Shown: piece by piece, positions 962 through 18,236 of the stretch
Layout of the letters: every line of letters begins with the position of its first letter
Numbering within the stretch: the stretch's first letter is position 1
Source: Clostridia bacterium
GTDB lineage: Bacteria; Bacillota; Clostridia; UMGS1883
Reading direction: 5' to 3'
NCBI GenBank assembly: GCA_017505525.1
Contig: JAFVPB010000044.1
Span: 12,662 to 76,661 of the forward strand
DNA: 64,000 nt
The notes under the pieces: model-generated
Database searches by the model: none
Told to the model about the DNA's origin: nothing
What the model saw: only the letters and a program-made list of their open reading frames with translations
Position numbers and translations under genes: made by a program

Positions 962-1879
962 TTAAAAAATACTGAGTTCTAACTCTCTACTCAATATTTC
1001 TAACGCCTTAATTCCTGCACAACTATTCCCTTTGCTGTCTAATGCAGGCGAATAGATTCCTATTCCCATTCTATTTGGCACAACAGCCATTATTCCACCG
1101 CAAACACCGCTTTTCGCAGGTACACCCACAGTAATAGCAAATTCTCCGGAACCGTCATACATTCCGCAAGTCATTAACACTGCATTGATGTATGTTGCAT
1201 GCTTTTTGTCGAATAACTGCTCTCCCGTAATTGGATTCTCTCCTTTATTGGCCAAAATAAATGCTATTCTTGCCAAATCAACACATGTAACTTTTATGGA
1301 GCAAGCTCGAAAATAGCAATCAAGCACCTCCTCAGCGTCTTCATTGATAATCCCATAAGCCTTGAGCATATACGTAAGAGCCCTATTTTTGTTACCAGTA
1401 GCCTTTTCAGACATATAAACATCTTCGTCAAGATTAATATTGGAATTGCCTGCAAGTTTTCGGGTTAAATCCAATAGTCTTTGGAATTTTTCCCGATATG
1501 TTTCTCCGTCTATAAGCGTGCACAAAGCAATTGCTCCTGCATTTATCATTGGGTTGATATGCTCGCTCTTTAAATCCTGATCACTATAATTGAAAGCATC
1601 GAATGGTTTTCCCGTAGCTTCTACTCCAACAAGATTTCGAACTTCTGCTTCTCCTTTGTCTTCAAGTGCTCTAAGCAATATAATGGCCTTTACAATACTT
1701 TGCATTGTAAAACTCTTTTCATAATCTCCCACGCCATTTGTACCTTGATCAATAGAGATAGTACATATTCCAAACTCATTTGGATTAGCCTTTGCAAGTT
1801 CAGGAATATATGTAGCTACTTTGCCATTTTGTATATAAGGATAACATTCTCTTATGATGTTTTTTAATAATTTATCCAT
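962..1879 (-). CDS. glsA: glutaminase A
   Basis: 305 aa. Length and motifs (KVATYIPELA, serine-beta-lactamase-like fold motifs) are typical of GlsA. Confidence 0.85.
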   Translation of the reverse strand: MDKLLKNIIRECYPYIQNGKVATYIPELAKANPNEFGICTISIDQGTNGVGDYEKSFTMQSIVKAIILLRALEDKGEAEVRNLVGVEATGKPFDAFNYSDQDLKSEHINPMINAGAIALCTLIDGETYREKFQRLLDLTRKLAGNSNINLDEDVYMSEKATGNKNRALTYMLKAYGIINEDAEEVLDCYFRACSIKVTCVDLARIAFILANKGENPITGEQLFDKKHATYINAVLMTCGMYDGSGEFAITVGVPAKSGVCGGIMAVVPNRMGIGIYSPALDSKGNSCAGIKALEILSRELELSIF

Positions 1880-1920
1880 ATATGCTCCTCCCGTTTAGAT
1901 ATTATTCTATATGTTATTGC

Positions 1921-2100
1921 GACACATAAGGTTTAGATGCAAACCTTTCAAAGGCTTCTCCTCGAGGAGAGGCTCCGCCGCAGGCGGTGGTGAGGTGTAG
2001 ATTGCAAAAGTAATCATTATCTTTTCCACCTCATCCGAGTTGCTTCGCAACCCACCTTCCCCTCAAGGGGAAGGCTTTCTATTTTCGACATCTTTCAACA
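1921..2100. other. GC-rich run of short perfect palindromes (candidate structured RNA/leader between promoter module A and glsA)
   Basis: About 55% GC in a roughly 30% GC context. Consecutive perfect palindromes are ctcctcgaggag, ccgccgcaggcgg, ttgcttcgcaa, ccttcccctcaaggggaagg, cctttgaaagg and gtttgcatctaaac. On the plus strand the last hairpin is followed by ctttctatttt, which is terminator-like. On the minus strand the region lies between a TTGACA promoter module and the glsA start. Confidence 0.4.
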
Positions 2101-2124
2101 TATCCATATTACTCGTGTCAAGTC
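2084..2124 (-). promoter_or_regulatory. promoter/leader module copy A (TTGACA-N17-TGTTGAAAGATGTCGAAAAT), facing glsA
   Basis: The minus strand reads gacTTGACAcgagtaatatggatatgTTGAAaGaTGTCGAAaatag. It aligns with copies B and C (below) over the -35 hexamer and a direct repeat GTYGAA...GTCGAA spaced 10-11 nt. Confidence 0.45.
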
Positions 2125-2373
2125 AGGAGAACAGTGAATAATAAGAACCGTCACGAAATATAACGAAATCAAAGATTTCTATATTTCGGAGAACCTTGAT
2201 ACTCGCAAGCTCGTATTAGGACCTACTATTTCCCCCTTAATTTTTCACTGCATTTTTTCTAAACAAAATTCTTTAGAACCCGCGAGAATACTAGATTTTC
2301 TCGCTTCCGATGATATATGTAAATATAATAAATCGGCAAACTAATCTTTTAAATTGTGTGGACTTGACACGAG
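2112..2373. repeat. MITE-like element copy A (262 bp, 13-bp terminal inverted repeats CTCGTGTCAAGTC/GACTTGACACGAG) with ~74-bp internal hairpin insertion (2144-2217)
   Basis: Left end 2112-2124 and right end 2361-2373 are exact reverse complements. The interior is >90% identical to copy B except for an inserted segment (agaaccgtcacgaaatata...ctcgtatt) carrying its own 9-bp stem (cgaaatata/tatatttcg). Confidence 0.7.
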
Positions 2374-2413
2374 TTGAAACTTAACAAAAACAATCCTTGT
2401 GTCATGTCAACAA

Positions 2414-3370
2414 TTATTCACCTGCAATAACTTTCAAAATCTTACCATCTGATTTTCTAATAATTACAGACAAATCCCCGCCCGGAACAAGTTCTTTATA
2501 TCTGCTTACTATAAAACATTTCTCATCATATGTTTCATCAACTACAACAGTTGTTTTATCAATAAAATCAGCACCTTCAATTTGTAAAAAAACATCATCA
2601 GCTATAGCAATAGCCACCGCTTCACCTAACTGAAAATCTACACTTTCTCCTACCCAGCCTTCTTTTCCATAGTATCCTAATTCAAACGCATTATTTTGCA
2701 CACCTTTTTTCTGATCAGCAGTTGAATTATTTAAAGCATTATAAACTCTTAATATGGTTACAATCGCTTCTTCTACCGTGTAAGTATCTTTAGGTGCAAA
2801 CTTATTATTTCCTACGCCCTGCATAAACCCCAAATTACTTATTATCTGTATGGATGGTAAAGACCACTCTGCCATTTCATCAACATCATCATAGGAATAG
2901 TACATTTCCGTTGTAGGTAGCGGATGAACAATATTTATCATACGAACGATAATCGTTGCAGCTTCTTCTCGTGTTAGAGTTTCGTTTGGCGCAAATTCGG
3001 TTATAGATTTCCCCGCAACGATATTATGATTGTATAAATCATACACCGCATTATTAGTACAGTCATCAAAAGGTCGTTTTGCAAATGGTGCTATCGGTTG
3101 TGTTCCGCCTTTTGTCTCTTCATCATACCAATTTTCAAAATAATCAGTGGTTAATATTAAATTATATATCAATTCACAAAAAGTCTCACGCGAAATCGGT
3201 GCACTGTACAGATATGTTTCATCAACACTAATAAGACCTATTGCATCAGCAATTGAAATGCTGTTCACAGCCCAATCACTACAATCGTGCTCACTATTTG
3301 TATCTGCATAAACTACAAACGATGAGCAAATAAATGCTAAAGTGATAACCATTGCTAATATTTTTTTCAT
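2414..3370 (-). CDS. secreted protein with three N-terminal SLH (S-layer homology) repeats and a ~100-aa C-terminal domain of unknown function
   Basis: Signal peptide MKKILAMVITLAFICSSFVVYA. Three SLH-like repeats carry the W/F...G...(F)AP...I(T/S)REE(A/F) pattern (PISRETFCELIYN, TLTREEAATIIVRMIN, TYTVEEAIVTILRVYN). Confidence 0.7.
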   Translation of the reverse strand: MKKILAMVITLAFICSSFVVYADTNSEHDCSDWAVNSISIADAIGLISVDETYLYSAPISRETFCELIYNLILTTDYFENWYDEETKGGTQPIAPFAKRPFDDCTNNAVYDLYNHNIVAGKSITEFAPNETLTREEAATIIVRMINIVHPLPTTEMYYSYDDVDEMAEWSLPSIQIISNLGFMQGVGNNKFAPKDTYTVEEAIVTILRVYNALNNSTADQKKGVQNNAFELGYYGKEGWVGESVDFQLGEAVAIAIADDVFLQIEGADFIDKTTVVVDETYDEKCFIVSRYKELVPGGDLSVIIRKSDGKILKVIAGE

Positions 3371-3390
3371 AAAATATACCTTCTTTCTGC

Positions 3391-3433
3391 AGTATTCAGC
3401 ACCATTCGACAGGATTTTTACTCATGTCAAGTC
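3391..3433 (-). promoter_or_regulatory. promoter/leader module copy B facing the SLH gene
   Basis: The minus strand reads gacTTGACAtgagtaaaaatccTGTCGAATGGTGCTGAATACTgcagaaagaaggtatattttATG. The TTGACA lies inside the element-B terminal inverted repeat. The leader is homologous to copy C. Confidence 0.5.
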
Positions 3434-3606
3434 AGGAGAACAGTGAATAATAGGACCTACTATTTTTTTCCTTAATTTTTCACTGCTTTTTTCTGAACAA
3501 ATTTCTTTAGAACCCGCGAGAATACTGGATTTTCTCGCATCCGATAGTATATGTAAATATCAAAATCGGCAAACTAATCTTTTAAATTGTATTGACTTGA
3601 CACGAG
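3421..3606. repeat. MITE-like element copy B (186 bp, same 13-bp TIRs; CTCATGTCAAGTC ... GACTTGACACGAG)
   Basis: Near-identical to copy A minus the insertion. Internal 7-bp hairpin gcgagaa-N9-ttctcgc. No obvious target-site duplication. It lies between the SLH gene and the NDT-like gene. Confidence 0.7.
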
Positions 3607-3665
3607 AAAAACATATGAACTTGTAATCTTAGGATTTACCATGTTAATACAGCTTTTATAATCCA

Positions 3666-4574
3666 TTAGTTGTTTTCTGATACGCATCGTTCTGCAATTA
3701 TCGGTTCTATATCCTTAAACCCATTTTCAGATAACACATTTAGAAAATAGTTATAAATTCCTGGCACATCAAGTAGCCCTGACATTTTTATGTATATGTC
3801 AATCGTTTTTTCGATGAAATCAAATTTAACACTATCAACTGTTGCATCCGAATCAACCACTTCATGAACTTTTGAAAGCTGGCGTTGTAAAAATGGTCTA
3901 TTAGGTTTCTTTTCCGGTAATTCTGTAAATTTAAATGCCATCCGAGTAATTCGTGGTAACTCCTCTCGACTTTCCATAAACTGATGGTGAAAACGACGAT
4001 TTGAAATTGTTATTGCATCCTCAATGCGATTAAGTCTTTTTAAGATATATTCTAGTGGTTCTATACTTGACTCTGAATCTCTCTGCGCCTGTTGCAAAAT
4101 TGATGTGTCATGATTTAATTCTCCTAACACCTCATATATAGGTCCACTTTTTTTATCAAACGCTATTTCTTCTTCAGCCTTTTTAATGTCATCTCTTAAT
4201 TCTAGAACCCCTTTAGCATCGTTACAATAAAAAATAGTTCTTTGCATAATAATATCAGCAGGTAACGATGTCCCCTTTTCTGCGATCATAATTACTGGCA
4301 AACCAAGTGTATGACGAAAAGCTAGTTCGTACATAACATTAGGGTTTTTGTTAGTTAAGTTAGCTATAACCAACTCGTCTTGCGCTATCTCTGATATAAT
4401 TTGTTTTGTAATGGAACCAGGTTCGCTAATCTTATGCGATACAGAAATCTCATATTTAGATCCTAATGCTGGTACAATTGCAGCATCAATTATACCATCT
4501 ATATGCCTTCTTATTGGGTCTGCTTCATCTCCAATTGGCGTAATAATAAAACATCTTTTTTTATTTTCGCTCAT
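3666..4574 (-). CDS. cytoplasmic protein with N-terminal nucleoside 2-deoxyribosyltransferase-like (NDT/SLOG-type Rossmann) domain and ~170-aa helical C-terminal domain of unknown function
   Basis: 302 aa. The N-terminus CFIITPIGDE...DELVIANLT..NPNVMYELAFRHTLGLPVIMIAE matches the NDT-family pattern (beta1 with Gly, hydrophobic strand ending in (A/D)N, then the E-hGhA..hGhPVIhI catalytic-Glu segment). No signal peptide or TM segment. Product assignment is tentative. Confidence 0.45.
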   Translation of the reverse strand: MSENKKRCFIITPIGDEADPIRRHIDGIIDAAIVPALGSKYEISVSHKISEPGSITKQIISEIAQDELVIANLTNKNPNVMYELAFRHTLGLPVIMIAEKGTSLPADIIMQRTIFYCNDAKGVLELRDDIKKAEEEIAFDKKSGPIYEVLGELNHDTSILQQAQRDSESSIEPLEYILKRLNRIEDAITISNRRFHHQFMESREELPRITRMAFKFTELPEKKPNRPFLQRQLSKVHEVVDSDATVDSVKFDFIEKTIDIYIKMSGLLDVPGIYNYFLNVLSENGFKDIEPIIAERCVSENN

Positions 4575-4596
4575 GAAAATCTCCTCTTTTCTTTAG

Positions 4597-4640
4597 TAAT
4601 TCGACACCATTCAACATAATTCGACTTTTGTCAAGACAGG
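4597..4640 (-). promoter_or_regulatory. promoter/leader module copy C (solo TIR-like TTGACA + conserved leader) facing the NDT-like gene
   Basis: The minus strand reads cTTGACAaaagtcgaattaTGTTGAATGGTGTCGAATTACTaaagaaaagaggagattttcATG. The tgtcaagacagga segment resembles the element TIR tgtcaagtcagga. Confidence 0.5.
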
Positions 4641-4666
4641 ATTAAAAAATATTCTCTTTGCATATA

Positions 4667-5038
4667 TTACAATTTATTTCCGCATTTGGGGCAATAGTCG
4701 AACTCTTGTGTAGTTTGATATCCGCAAGTTTTACAAATTTTTACTGTTTCATATTCATTAACTATTGTTAAATCTGCATCGATAATAATAACGTCTTCCC
4801 CATTCTTTATCATTTTTCCTTTTTCTTTATCAAGAATAAAAATACTTTTGCAACAAGAAGACTGAGCATAATATTTTATATTCCATTTAAATATTGGTAT
4901 AAAAAATATACTCAGATACATATACGTCATAAAAACATTATATGTAGTATAGCTTCCGCAGTTTTTACAGATATTCATTCTTCCTGCATTTTGAATTAAT
5001 TCTTTATTTCCTTGTGATATTCCCATTATAAAAAACAT
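4667..5038 (-). CDS. small membrane-associated zinc-ribbon protein
   Basis: Two Cys pairs (CKNCGS...; CKTCG...CPKCGNKL) flank a hydrophobic segment. Last gene of the long minus-strand operon. Start may be an internal Met. Confidence 0.5.
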   Translation of the reverse strand: MFFIMGISQGNKELIQNAGRMNICKNCGSYTTYNVFMTYMYLSIFFIPIFKWNIKYYAQSSCCKSIFILDKEKGKMIKNGEDVIIIDADLTIVNEYETVKICKTCGYQTTQEFDYCPKCGNKL

Positions 5039-5040
5039 AA

Positions 5041-5265
5041 TTACTGCCTTTCAAATCTATATTCCTGCACAACATCAGGATACTTTTCTTTATCAACTTT
5101 TTCTAAAAACATATCAAGCGGTCTTATCCATAAGGATTCTTCCCCATACATTTGCCTGTAGACCACATAATCTTCGCCGGTTTCAGAATGTTTTGCAATA
5201 TTTTCGACTCTGTATAGATTACCTTTAAAGTGCTTATATATGGCGCCAATTTCAATTTTTCGCAT
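5041..5265 (-). CDS. DUF1653-like small protein
   Basis: 74 aa. GAIYKHFKGNLYRV...AKHSETGEDYVVYRQMYG...WIRPLDMF matches the DUF1653 pattern as I remember it. It lies 3 nt from the upstream gene. Confidence 0.55.
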   Translation of the reverse strand: MRKIEIGAIYKHFKGNLYRVENIAKHSETGEDYVVYRQMYGEESLWIRPLDMFLEKVDKEKYPDVVQEYRFERQ

Positions 5266-5281
5266 ATTAAAATACTCCTTA

Positions 5282-5968
5282 TTATTTAAAAAAACTTATT
5301 AAATATAAAACTCCCAGATGAAGAGGGTAGTAACTATAGAAAAAATATTTAAGATTGTATTTTCCTCTTGTTCCGTTGTATAAAAACAGTATTGGTAATG
5401 ACAATAGAGAAAAATACTGGACAAAGCTTCCCTGTGTGTTTAACGATAACAGAATGAGCATTATAGCTGTATTAACAATCTTTTTTTCTTTAGTTGGAGC
5501 AATATAAATTATAAATGGCATTATTATTCCTATAAATCCGTAATCAAAATAAATTTGATATATATCTAAAACATACACCATTATAAAAATAAGCAGCAAT
5601 ATTATAAAAAACTTAGGTTTTTCTTTTTTCTCTTCGTAAAATCTGGTGTAGGCACTGATAATTAATATTGAAAGAGAAAATGTTAAAAAGATATTTAAAT
5701 ACCAATCCCCTGTTGCAATTAAATAAACTGTCTGGCTTACAACTCCTACAAGAAAAACCTTCATAAAATATTTTTTTATATTTTTAGTGAAAAAACACCC
5801 TTCTGATATAGAATAGGCAAATATAGGAAAAGCAAGTCTTCCTATAATCCTGAAGGGTGTAAAATCGTTTAAAAGTATCAGACCAATATGGTCGATTGTC
5901 ATTGATATTATTGCTATGAGCTTAATTAAATTGTTGCTTAATCCTGATTTAAATGCATTCATAATCAT
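5282..5968 (-). CDS. TraX-family membrane protein
   Basis: NNLIKLIAIISMTIDHIGLIL is the TraX signature, and the protein is multi-pass hydrophobic. The start is taken at MIMNAF (5966-5968), which gives a TGATG overlap with the stop of the upstream J-domain gene; the longer track ORF (to 6013) is judged an artefact. Confidence 0.75.
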   Translation of the reverse strand: MIMNAFKSGLSNNLIKLIAIISMTIDHIGLILLNDFTPFRIIGRLAFPIFAYSISEGCFFTKNIKKYFMKVFLVGVVSQTVYLIATGDWYLNIFLTFSLSILIISAYTRFYEEKKEKPKFFIILLLIFIMVYVLDIYQIYFDYGFIGIIMPFIIYIAPTKEKKIVNTAIMLILLSLNTQGSFVQYFSLLSLPILFLYNGTRGKYNLKYFFYSYYPLHLGVLYLISFFK

Positions 5969-9038: not shown

Positions 9039-10388
9039 TTATTTCAACAAATCACAGATTGCATCAATATTTTTCTTTAGTGTAAGACAACCAATTCCAT
9101 TGTCGGCCTTTACATAGTAATTTCTTTCATTGTAATTATAATATTTGAAGGTTTTCTTTTGATTGTTATTTAAATCAAAGGTTATTGTACATTGCTCTTT
9201 TCCTGTAGGAACAAAATCATCATCTATATCTGTTGCAATGACGCCTATAATTGCCTGATACAATTTCTTAAAGTTTTCTTCGCTTATATCTTTGTTGTTT
9301 ACATAGTATTTAGCTTTATCATTTTGAATATCGCCCTTAACGCTGATAACGTCAGTTTGACTTTGGAATGAAAATTCAACTGAATTAACATCTGATAAGT
9401 TTACTAAATGTATAAATCTATCGATATATTCATCAGAGTTTGCGTTAACAACTTTTTCATAAAAAGGACAATCAGCTAAATATACGACCTTTCTATCGTT
9501 ATACATAATATAGACCAATCCATCATCATTCTTATTGCCTAAGGAAATTGTATGAGTTCCATTACCATCTGTTACTGTTAATTTATAAGGATTATTAAAT
9601 CCGTAAGAAGTAATCTCATTCATATTTTCTGTAACAATTTCCTGCGCAGTTATACTACTGATAGTTTCAAGAAGAGCATTCGTTCTGTCGGTTGATGCTA
9701 CTACACCTTTATAAGGATAGAGAATTTTATAGTTTCTAATAGAATTTGAAGGATCTTTTTTTTCTTTTTCAAATTCTATATCTATAATTTTATTATTGCC
9801 CCTGCTTATAGCAACTCTTTCTATTGTTTCTGGCGCAATACTACATACATCAAGACTGCGGTATTGGCTTGGGTCAACTTTAAAGAATTCTGCAGAACTT
9901 TTGCTAATTGAGGATAATCGACCTGTGGCTTCATTATAAGCATAATACTCGCCTTCTACACCGGTGCTGTTACCCAAAATAATTTTTGTTGATTTTCCGT
10001 CTTTCTCTTTAATAACAACATAAGTACTACTGTCTTTAATACCATATTCCAGAAGACTGGTATCTTCAACTTTTATATTTTGGTTTTCTATTATGTATGA
10101 AAAACTGTGTATTGCTCTTGTAAGAAGTTCGGGGTCAATAATTTTACTTTCGTACCCTGATATTGTTTTATTTTCCCCATTGCGAACAGTATAGCTATTG
10201 CCATCATAATAGAATTCTATACTTGCGATGTTATCTGTTTCGGTTTTAAACAAATAATATGTTTCATCATCGGTCTCAGTTGTGATGATTTCTGTTTCGG
10301 GAGTCCATTTAACAGCAAAAAAGTATAAACCAAATAATACAACAAGAACAATAAAACCTGAAACTAATCCTTTAACTCTTTTTTTCAT
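9039..10388 (-). CDS. DUF4340-domain protein (partner of GldG-like ABC auxiliary component)
   Basis: 449 aa with an N-terminal TM anchor and a beta-rich exported body. It is positioned directly after the GldG-like gene, with the stop and start sharing nt 10388. Confidence 0.65.
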   Translation of the reverse strand: MKKRVKGLVSGFIVLVVLFGLYFFAVKWTPETEIITTETDDETYYLFKTETDNIASIEFYYDGNSYTVRNGENKTISGYESKIIDPELLTRAIHSFSYIIENQNIKVEDTSLLEYGIKDSSTYVVIKEKDGKSTKIILGNSTGVEGEYYAYNEATGRLSSISKSSAEFFKVDPSQYRSLDVCSIAPETIERVAISRGNNKIIDIEFEKEKKDPSNSIRNYKILYPYKGVVASTDRTNALLETISSITAQEIVTENMNEITSYGFNNPYKLTVTDGNGTHTISLGNKNDDGLVYIMYNDRKVVYLADCPFYEKVVNANSDEYIDRFIHLVNLSDVNSVEFSFQSQTDVISVKGDIQNDKAKYYVNNKDISEENFKKLYQAIIGVIATDIDDDFVPTGKEQCTITFDLNNNQKKTFKYYNYNERNYYVKADNGIGCLTLKKNIDAICDLLK

Positions 10389-16707: not shown

Positions 16708-16982
16708 ATTAATAATTAAATCCTGTGATGAGAAATAGTAGCTGTGAAGCTTTTTGGAAAGCGAGCCGTCGTTGGTGTGAGGTACGGTGCAAAAAGGCAT
16801 AGTGAATGGGTCTTTGAGGAGCGAGGGCGAAAAGAGTTTCTTAGTAGTTTTCGACGTGTGTATCACGTAACAGATACAGAATATATCCATATGGAGTATT
16901 CGTTAAGAGTAAGCTTTGCTTAAACGTAGGGTGGCACCGCGATTAAAAATCGTCCCGACAGATAGTTCTGTCGGGATTTTTT
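16708..16982 (+). promoter_or_regulatory. T-box riboswitch leader (probable Trp specifier UGG) controlling trpB
   Basis: Promoter TTGACA (16672-16677)-N17-TATCAT. Stem-I elements (tgatgagaaatagta) and a candidate specifier loop ttttUGGAaag. The conserved T-box AACGTAGGGTGGCACCGCG lies at 16923-16941, and the terminator hairpin tcccgacagatagttctgtcggga plus U-run at 16953-16982. Confidence 0.8.
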
Positions 16983-17018: not shown

Positions 17019-18236
17019 ATGAAATTAGGAAATGTTGATTTTGATAACTACGCAAAAAATTATCCGTCTCCCGATGGCTTTTTCGGGAAATACGGCGGAT
17101 GCTATGTATCTGATGAATTAAAAAATGCAATGGCAGAGATTACAAAAGCTTATTATGAAATATGCAAATCACGAAAATTTATTGATGAATTGAGAAGAAT
17201 CAGAAAGGAATTTCAGGGTCGTCCCACTCCCATCACACATCTTGAAAGACTTTCAAATCAACTTGGTGGAGTGCAGATTTATGCAAAGCGCGAAGACCTT
17301 AACCACACAGGAGCGCATAAGCTTAACCACTGCATGGGCGAAGGACTTCTTGCCAAGTATATGGGAAAGAAAAAAATTATTGCAGAGACAGGCGCAGGTC
17401 AGCACGGAGTTGCTTTGGCAACAGCAGCTGCATATTTTGGCCTTGAATGCGATATTTATATGGGAAGTGTTGATATTGCAAAACAAGCTCCAAACGTTGC
17501 GCGCATGAAAATACTTGGCGCAAACGTTGTTGAAGTTAAGGAAGGACTTCAAACTCTTAAAGAAGCAGTAGATGCTGCATTTTCAGCTTATGCTAATGAA
17601 TATAAAGATGCTATTTATTGTATAGGTTCTGTTCTTGGTCCGCATCCTTTCCCTATGATGGTACGTGATTTCCAGAGTGTTGTTGGTATAGAGGCGCGCG
17701 AACAGTTTATAGAAATGACAGGCGAACTTCCTGACTCAATTGTTGCCTGTGTTGGTGGCGGCTCTAATGCAGCAGGTCTTTTTGCTGGATTTTTAAACGA
17801 CCCTGTTGATATTTATGGTGTTGAGCCTCTTGGTCTTGGAGAAAAGCTTGGGGATCATGCTGCAAGTCTTTCATTTGGTACAGAAGGTATCATGCATGGA
17901 TTTAACAGTATAATGCTTAAGGATGAAAATGGCGAGCCAGCTCCCGTATATTCTGTTGCAAGCGGACTTGACTATCCTTCGTCAGGACCCGAACATGCAT
18001 TTTTACGCGATATCGGCCGAGTTAAATATGGTTATATCGGCGACGATGAAACTATAGATGCATTCTTCCGTCTTTCACGTACAGAGGGCATAATTCCTGC
18101 TCTTGAAAGCTCACATGCGGTTGCTTATGCAATTAAACTCGCTCAGCAAATGGAACATGGTTCAATTCTTGTAAATCTCTCGGGACGCGGAGATAAAGAT
18201 ATGGACTATATTATTGAAAAATACGGTATCAGATAA
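17019..18236 (+). CDS. trpB: tryptophan synthase beta chain (stand-alone)
   Basis: 405 aa. [13 protein letters not shown], the PLP-lysine motif [11 protein letters not shown] and GGGSNA are TrpB hallmarks. No trpA or other trp genes are adjacent. Confidence 0.85.

Follow-up and report, generated by a model that had tools for sequence, protein, structure and literature searches.

Why should three neighboring genes with no evident functional connection share one promoter-like sequence, and what reads it? The question is raised by a 64-kb stretch of DNA from a Clostridia bacterium (assembly GCA_017505525.1, contig JAFVPB010000044.1, positions 12,662 to 76,661), hereafter the window. A first-pass annotation of the window had noted a repeated module on the minus strand ahead of glsA (glutaminase), a gene for a protein with SLH domains and a gene for a protein called NDT-like. 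The answer that we favor, with a somewhat better than even chance of being correct, is that the module is a portable sigma-A-type promoter carrying an operator for Spo0A over its -10/+1 region, a placement that implies repression.

Three Module Copies in the Window

All three minus-strand copies are present at the positions given by the first-pass annotation. Their components, read in the direction of transcription, and the genes directly behind copies 2 and 3 are as follows.

2084-2127, minus: module copy 1 (class II, see below), with CCTGAC at 2127-2122, TTGACA at 2121-2116, a -10-like hexamer TAATAT at 2111-2106, box 1 (TGTTGAA) at 2100-2094 and box 2 (TGTCGAA) at 2090-2084
3395-3436, minus: module copy 2, ahead of the SLH-domain gene, with CCTGAC at 3436-3431, TTGACA at 3430-3425, a degenerate box 0 (GTAAAAAT), box 1 (TGTCGAA) at 3411-3405 and box 2 (TGCTGAA) at 3401-3395
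4600-4650, minus: module copy 3, ahead of the TIR/NDT-like gene, with a T-tract at 4649-4644, CCTGTC at 4640-4635, TTGACA at 4634-4629, box 0 (GTCGAAT) at 4625-4619, box 1 (TGTTGAA) at 4616-4610 and box 2 (TGTCGAA) at 4606-4600; downstream lie the Shine-Dalgarno (SD) sequence AGAGGAG at 4587-4581 and the ATG at 4574
2414-3370, minus: gene for the SLH protein (ATG at 3370), with a signal-peptide-like N terminus and two SLH repeats (PF00395, E 5.9e-14)
3666-4574, minus: gene for the 302-aa TIR/NDT-like protein (PADLOC TIR effector model, E 1.4e-7)

The copies share the layout CCTGNC-TTGACA, 12-15 nt and then TGTYGAA-N3-TGYYGAA; in each of them, copy 3 included, the similarity takes in the 6 nt that precede TTGACA (CCTGNC). 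Copy 3 lacks the repeat element found upstream of the other two, and copy 1 is followed directly by a structured repeat, not by a ribosome-binding site. The degenerate 21-mer of the first-pass annotation, applied with up to 3 mismatches, matched the 64 kb at just these three sites compared with 0.15 matches in shuffled sequence, a result that is not an independent test, the 21-mer having been derived from the same three copies. We therefore attach more weight to the pattern TGHYGAANNNTGHYGAA, which describes tandem boxes (TGHYGAA-N3-TGHYGAA), was not fitted to the copies and is independent of them. It gave three matches in 64 kb, again at the same three sites; in shuffled windows 0.04 were expected, and none of 100 shuffles reached 3.

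The direct repeats are phased as had been proposed, lying exactly 10 nt apart (7 + 3) in the window copies. The constant 17-nt spacer of the first description did not survive measurement: from TTGACA to the first full repeat there are 15, 13 and 12 nt in copies 1, 2 and 3, respectively, and from TTGACA to GAATGG, the proposed -10 element, there are 19, 17 and 16 nt. A scan for consensus promoters and terminators called none of the three modules. The Rfam search of the window at gathering score returned a T-box as its sole match and nothing relevant to the modules, and a search of positions 1800-4750 at E values up to 5 gave nothing credible. The T-box leader (RF00230, 111.8 bits) lies at 16716-16960 on the plus strand, upstream of trpB (17019-18236). 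The 302-aa protein matches the PADLOC TIR effector model over residues 16-115, and it has no match in Pfam or among PDB sequences; on this homology it may be a defense-type protein.

Occurrence of the Module in Other Genomes

We scanned one genome per species from 185,579 species with the pattern TTGACA-N(10-18)-TGTYGAAWGRTGYYGAA and obtained 47 loci, compared with ~6 expected by chance on our own estimate. Forty of these loci are in metagenome-assembled genomes (MAGs) of uncultured gut or rumen bacteria labeled "Clostridia bacterium," Oscillospiraceae or Ructibacterium, representing ~37 species. Three more come from a single MAG labeled "Bacilli," and the remaining four (from an archaeon, a Crocinitomix and two Paenibacillus) resemble chance or unrelated matches. 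Within this clade the modules are always intergenic and co-oriented with the next gene. Most of them end within 7-35 nt of its start codon, often with the SD sequence abutting the last repeat.

The window's own genome also contains further copies, just past the right end of the window on the same contig (locus L073). At ~595-650 of that locus a canonical TTGAGC-17-TATAAT promoter is followed 3 nt later by TGTCGAATGTTGTCGAA and then by the start of a gene for a Cu_amine_oxidN1 protein, and another class I module and another inverted-repeat element are found at 4998 and 6350. Similarity is thus not confined to the window locus. That the three window copies are a functionless local duplication, the case that the first-pass annotation had itself named as refuting its proposal, might be suggested by their adjacency and by the upstream repeat element that two of them share; this explanation is already refuted by the occurrence of the module before unrelated genes in ~37 other species and elsewhere in the same genome, and we give it practically no weight.

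The genes downstream of the modules have no shared function. They encode Bro-N proteins, LytTR regulators, DUF4379 zinc-finger proteins, a DNA methylase, a Phd antitoxin, a WapI-like immunity protein, an ion channel, fumarase, LRR and SLH proteins, and many short family-less proteins with signal-peptide-like N termini. This lack of a common function fits a portable promoter of general use better than the leader of one particular pathway. The small regulon originally envisaged is too narrow a description for a module that precedes dozens of unrelated accessory genes in ~37 species and recurs in the same genome.

We considered a phage or plasmid origin and rejected it: blastn against phage and plasmid collections gave no match, and a scan of 2.9 million viral contigs yielded only one true module.

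Two further arrangements were noted. In the "Bacilli bacterium" MAG Lapin-026 (loci L003, L009 and L025) a 5-nt gap separates TTGACA from three perfect TGTCGAA boxes in 10-nt phase; these boxes sit within a different repeated sequence on three contigs, and no ribosome-binding site lies directly downstream. In Paenibacillus sp. JCM 10914 (L032, 5636-5674) two TTGACA-type promoters flank tandem perfect boxes (TGTCGAAAGATGTCGAA), which precede an apparent rRNA operon leader.

Anatomy of the Module

Alignment of 49 clade modules showed a T-tract ~9-14 nt upstream of TTGACA, then a conserved CCTGAC, TTGACA itself, a conserved CGAG(T) before the boxes and finally two to four direct 7-bp repeats in 10-bp phase, which start 12-16 nt downstream of TTGACA. 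TTGACA is invariant in the 49 modules, partly owing to the search pattern; yet 29 of 33 ends of the repeat element, collected without requiring TTGACA, contain it as well, and all three window copies have this perfect sigma-A -35 hexamer. The repeats have the consensus TGTCGAA-N3-TG(T/C)(C/T)GAA, and their 7+3+7 spacing is kept in 3/3 window copies and 49/49 clade modules. Box 1 reads TGTCGAA in ~90% of the 49 modules, with an information content of ~2 bits at T1, G2, T3, G5, A6 and A7. Box 2 has an invariant G2 and G5, with either C or T at position 4.

The gap between TTGACA and box 1 takes four values, 12 nt (9 modules), 13 nt (20), 15 nt (17) and 16 nt (3), by which two classes can be distinguished. 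Class I, with a gap of 12 or 13 nt, includes window copies 2 and 3 and has an extra upstream box (GTCGAAT or GTAAGAAT) ahead of TGTCGAA and TG(C/T)TGAA, sometimes with further degenerate boxes in phase. At the -10 position class I has AATGRT, in which A-11 and T-7 are kept (AATGGT in window copies 2 and 3, 3/6 matches to a consensus -10). Class II, with a gap of 15 or 16 nt, includes window copy 1 and has a good -10-like hexamer (TAATAT, TATAGT or TATGTA) just 4-7 nt after TTGACA, followed by TGTCGAA-WGA-TGTCGAA. From TTGACA to the end of box 2 the distance is 35-39 nt.

Boxes also occur at the same place after a canonical promoter (in L073) and after a second promoter-like sequence, P2, described below. 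Their presence behind other promoter types indicates that the boxes behave as a separable operator, and their position after canonical -35/-10 promoters indicates that they are not themselves a -10 element.

The Repeats Match the Binding Site of Spo0A

The 0A box recognized by Spo0A has the 7-bp core TGTCGAA, in which G2, C4 and G5 are the contacted bases, and this specificity is common to the Bacillus subtilis and Clostridioides difficile proteins (PMC3485338). Active Spo0A~P is a dimer; at promoter A2c of phage Nf Spo0A represses transcription, and its footprint of 25-30 bp takes in part of the core promoter and holds two boxes, each TGTtGAA, 3 bp apart (PMC2731898). The 0A boxes of abrB are placed downstream of its promoter, where they serve as a repressing roadblock (PMC12090719). 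The module repeats match the 0A core at 7/7 positions and stand in the 7+3+7 dimer arrangement. Judged by its sequence, the module has the repeat, the spacing and the promoter-proximal position of a known Spo0A operator.

The A2c promoters of the Bacillus phages phi29 and Nf (site 0A-1/0A-1'), which together with abrB are the nearest known systems, resemble the module in having two direct-repeat 0A boxes, 3 bp apart, that overlap part of the core promoter. They differ in that the module has its boxes downstream of the -35 element, over the -10/+1 region, and has up to four of them; the module, moreover, recurs ahead of many chromosomal accessory genes of uncultured Clostridia. The likeness to abrB is in the combination of a high-affinity perfect TGTCGAA core with flanking imperfect boxes downstream of the promoter (PMC3485338, PMC12090719), a layout matched by those module variants whose boxes follow a canonical -10 element (L073 and the P2 forms). 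In the TTGACA-form modules, by contrast, the boxes replace the -10 region, whereas those of abrB follow the promoter, and abrB is a single low-threshold regulator gene whereas the module is a portable operator on dozens of unrelated genes.

Among other direct-repeat operators we compared that of CtsR in Gram-positive bacteria, GGTCAAA-NAN-GGTCAAA, which overlaps the -35/-10 region or the start site of the repressed promoter. It shares with the module a 7-bp direct repeat and a 3-bp spacer. It differs in its heptad (GTCAAA rather than GTCGAA) and in its clp and chaperone targets, none of which lies behind a module. Readings of the repeats as sites for sigma-H, extracytoplasmic function (ECF) sigma factors, SigI or sigma-54 were checked by eye against the consensus sequences and rejected, none fitting both elements and the spacing.

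A Spo0A Gene on a Contig with a Module

A tblastn search of all fetched loci with B. subtilis Spo0A gave a match in L031. On this 6.9-kb contig of a clade MAG a module at 373-407 is accompanied by a Spo0A gene at 5096-5866, the product of which scores 314.6 bits against the equivalog model TIGR02875 (cutoff 200). Its recognition helix (SRVERAIRHAIEVAW) is identical to that of the B. subtilis protein. More than 100 public proteins are 64-96% identical to the L031 protein; several are named Spo0A and come from "Clostridia bacterium" gut MAGs, and the spo0A genes of these relatives adjoin spoIVB (Peptidase_S55) and spoIID genes.

Spo0A-bearing relatives contain perfect single 0A boxes at position 9823 (L064-L066) and at ~8482 and 4265 (L068-L070). 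One perfect box in such relatives lies ~180 nt upstream of spo0A, and another lies within the spacer of a TTGATA-17-TAAAAT promoter-like sequence at a polysaccharide deacetylase gene adjoining spoIVB.

Proposed Mode of Action

In the scheme that we propose, the T-rich tract, CCTGAC and the perfect TTGACA -35 hexamer would recruit RNA polymerase with the housekeeping sigma-A. Given that TTGACA lies 35-39 nt before the end of the last repeat, transcription is predicted to start at the repeat end, just before the SD sequence. The -10 element would be weak and embedded in the boxes, the class I candidate being AATGRT at 17-18 bp. As Spo0A~P rises with the onset of stationary phase or sporulation, head-to-tail dimers would occupy the two to four phased boxes. 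They would cover the DNA between about -27 (or -17) and +1 and prevent the open complex from forming; at promoters that have a canonical -10 element ahead of the boxes, Spo0A~P would be a roadblock. Genes behind a module would accordingly be expressed during growth and, like abrB, be shut off once Spo0A~P reaches a low threshold. Activation is disfavored, there being no room for a -10 element between the boxes and the SD sequence. The module thus most likely turns accessory genes off when sporulation signaling starts, a prediction for which we infer Spo0A binding, the start site, the -10 hexamer and the sign of regulation from sequence features. The earlier suggestion of a promoter/operator-type module with phased repeats suited to a regulator stands in this form, with one factor as the likeliest reader and Spo0A as the candidate; nothing requires the alternative sigma factor that had been offered beside it.

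The novelty lies in how the parts are packaged: one standard promoter-operator unit, exchangeable and set among a collection of reusable intergenic repeats, stands ahead of dozens of unrelated genes in an uncultured clade. If Spo0A reads the boxes, dozens of accessory genes with little else in common, among them surface, immunity-like, toxin-antitoxin and methylase genes and the gene for the TIR-like protein, are coupled by this one unit to the master switch of sporulation in a large clade of uncultured Clostridia from gut and rumen. The module would then help to predict from sequence the timing of expression of these unannotated genes and would provide a way to recognize promoters in genomes known only from metagenomes, and a compact candidate part (~40 bp) for sporulation-responsive expression in Clostridia.

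The Inverted-repeat Element Upstream of Copies 1 and 2

Two copies of a repeat element are present in the window.

3415-3611, minus: element A, 197 nt, left arm TTTTTCTCGTGTCAAGTC at 3611-3594 and right arm GACTTGACATGAGTAAAAA at 3433-3415
2109-2375, minus: element B, a long variant that has its arms at 2373-2361 and 2124-2112 and contains a 67-nt insert at 2213-2147

The element is ~180 nt long and closed by 13-19-bp inverted repeats, and the fetched loci contain 33 right ends and 25 left ends that are 70-96% identical to element A. Positions in its internal hairpin are variable yet complementary. All copies share one orientation and one kind of site, with the stop codon of a gene on one side and the module of the following gene on the other. 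The right arm is the module's own CCTGAC-TTGACA-CGAG, and the left arm is an inverted copy of it; the right arm of element A accordingly forms the -35 part of module copy 2. The 67-nt insert (minus strand, 2147-2213) is also found in roughly a third of the element copies elsewhere, a repeat within a repeat.

The first-pass annotation had described the element as MITE-like (MITE, miniature inverted-repeat transposable element) and had suggested that it spreads the operator. TTGACA of copies 1 and 2 does lie within the right inverted repeat of a repeated element, as stated there. The second half of the proposal is not supported: the boxes lie outside the element, about two-thirds of the modules have CCTGAC-TTGACA without it, and the ortholog of the SLH gene in L008 has its module (4476-4511) without it, from which we conclude that the element does not deliver the operator.

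MITEs and insertion sequence (IS) elements can carry outward-facing -35 hexamers in their terminal repeats. The element is like them in being a short, non-coding, multicopy repeat, dispersed in many copies, with terminal inverted repeats and a TTGACA in the terminal repeat that faces the next gene. It differs from them in its fixed orientation and position, in the occurrence of the same TTGACA context without the element and in that no target-site duplication was seen at the element ends and no cognate transposase was found. Invertible promoter switches are known in gut bacteria, such as those of C. difficile cwpV and flgB and the Bacteroides invertons, and the element resembles these in that 13-19-bp inverted repeats enclose ~160 bp and in its place directly before a gene, often one for a surface or secreted protein. 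The difference is that no inverted orientation occurs, either in the 33 genome copies (0/33 flipped) or in a metagenome scan (0 flipped versus 11 direct junctions). An inverton is ruled against by these junction counts and by the lack of a recurrent recombinase: among the recurrent Pfam families of 128 neighboring proteins there is no recombinase, integrase or transposase. An integron-like array with a linked recombinase was likewise rejected, none being found among the 128 proteins.

Exchange of Module and Gene as a Cassette

The stretch from 4475 to 5624 of L008 is 97.6% identical to window positions 3431-2275. The shared sequence begins at the base before TTGACA, runs through the SLH gene and ends within the next repeat element. 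In L008 this cassette comes behind the rpoA-rplQ operon, and the gene on its far side is a different one. The positions of the breakpoints, at TTGACA and inside the next repeat, indicate that module and gene move as a unit, with the breaks within shared repeats; the adjoining inverted-repeat element, too, appears to belong to the units that recombination within the repeats exchanges between genomic sites. Neighboring cassettes differ between relatives, and the island in the window is flanked by housekeeping genes. Homologous recombination between the repeats is enough to explain the exchange, although a dedicated mechanism may be at work.

A bolder interpretation is that the module, the 180-nt element, P2 and a five-hairpin element described below form a previously undescribed cassette system of uncultured gut Clostridia, in which accessory genes would be carried as units with Spo0A-gated promoters and exchanged between chromosomal sites and species by recombination at the shared CTTGACACGAG core or at a repeat. 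We consider this interpretation unlikely. Such a system would be functionally analogous to integron and dif-module cassettes and would differ from them in having no linked integrase. The construction of the clade's intergenic DNA from a few reusable repeats matters for genome assembly and for the movement of accessory genes.

Alternative Explanations

Several observations weigh against Spo0A as the reader of the module. A consensus -10 element is absent at 16-18 bp from TTGACA, and at this position class II has TCGAAW or TTGAAA (TTGAAA in window copy 1), without A-11. No sporulation gene was recognized in 84 kb of the window's genome (the 64 kb plus 20 kb of flanks), Spo0A was found in only one module-bearing relative (L031), and the seven loci around four other close Spo0A homologs contain single 0A boxes and no module. 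The module-bearing genomes are a broad group, RpoA being 66% identical between L008 and L067, and we found no described precedent for a consensus Spo0A site ahead of so many unrelated accessory genes. The missing canonical -10 and the failure to find Spo0A in those 84 kb would also suit a DNA-level operator or promoter read by another factor, which might be a different direct-repeat regulator, 7+3+7 repeats being used by CtsR among others, or an alternative sigma factor using TTGACA together with GTCGAA-type elements; the conservation of CCTGAC upstream and CGAG downstream of TTGACA, beyond the needs of a -35 element, points the same way. We nevertheless consider a reader other than Spo0A unlikely, since the 7/7 match of the repeat is to the 0A core and not to any other operator known to us, and no regulator or sigma gene recurs beside the modules. 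For an alternative sigma factor in particular, the bimodal gap after TTGACA (12/13 versus 15/16 nt) is unlike the strict spacing of ECF-type promoters, and boxes occur just after canonical -35/-10 promoters as well.

If the repeats acted in RNA, as a 5'-untranslated-region element beside the SD sequence that is bound by a protein or affects translation or stability, one could understand why the last box often abuts the SD sequence (as GAA-AGGAG) and why boxes follow different promoters yet always precede the SD sequence. We regard this as very improbable. With TTGACA as the -35 hexamer most of the boxes would lie upstream of +1 and remain untranscribed; their distance to the SD sequence or ATG ranges from 0 to >200 nt, whereas that to TTGACA or the -10 element is tight; inspection of the repeat region by eye reveals no self-complementary stretch, Rfam gives no match, and RNA-binding proteins that recognize a 7-nt motif repeated every 10 nt are not known to us. 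The conserved sequences might instead serve chiefly in recombination or mobility, as junctions of cassettes, arms of invertons or ends of MITEs, and resemble promoters only incidentally. This reading draws on the near-identical SLH cassette at another site in L008 with its breakpoints at TTGACA and inside a repeat, on the >30 copies of the 180-nt element, 85-95% identical across species, and on the variable neighboring cassettes. It too is improbable: the element keeps one orientation, no recombinase, integrase or transposase recurs nearby, phage and plasmid collections hold no match, modules are common without the element, ordinary homologous recombination can account for the exchange, and the 0A-box consensus and its phasing would be left unexplained.

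The Region between Copy 1 and glsA

Unlike copies 2 and 3, copy 1 is separated from the gene that it had been thought to control by two further elements.

962-1879, minus: glsA, glutaminase (PF04960, E 2.7e-114)
1914-1943, minus: P2, a promoter-like 30-mer (TTTGCATCTAAACCTTATGTGTCGCAATAA) with TTTGCA at 1943-1938, an 18-nt conserved spacer and CAATAA at 1919-1914
1945-2077, minus: GC-rich five-hairpin repeat of ~130 nt, between module copy 1 and glsA (fold z = -4.0)

The claim that the module stands ahead of three transcription units therefore holds for copies 2 and 3 and only loosely for glsA, where copy 1 lies ~205 nt from the ATG and the structured repeat and P2 intervene. P2 is directly upstream of glsA (ATG at 1879). 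In L015 the ortholog of glsA is likewise preceded by P2, whereas boxes and the structured repeat are both missing there. Control of glsA by copy 1 is doubtful on the evidence of this ortholog, which has only the proximal promoter-like sequence, and the elements lying between copy 1 and glsA, taken with L015, suggest that P2 is probably the promoter of glsA, in which case copy 1 may drive the structured RNA. A glsA-specific riboswitch in the 200-nt leader was considered and rejected, the structured part being repeated before different genes and absent from the L015 ortholog.

The last of the five hairpins (1973-1954) is followed by a T-rich sequence (CTTTGAAAGGTTT), and on this basis the two together may form a terminator. 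Copies of the five-hairpin repeat with compensatory changes in the stems are present in L005, L014, L022 (twice), L044 and L047 and in the viral contig L061; they precede different genes and have no match in Rfam. P2 occurs in 16 copies in the fetched loci and elsewhere is often followed by tandem boxes. The conservation extends to its 18-nt spacer, an unusual feature if P2 were no more than a promoter.

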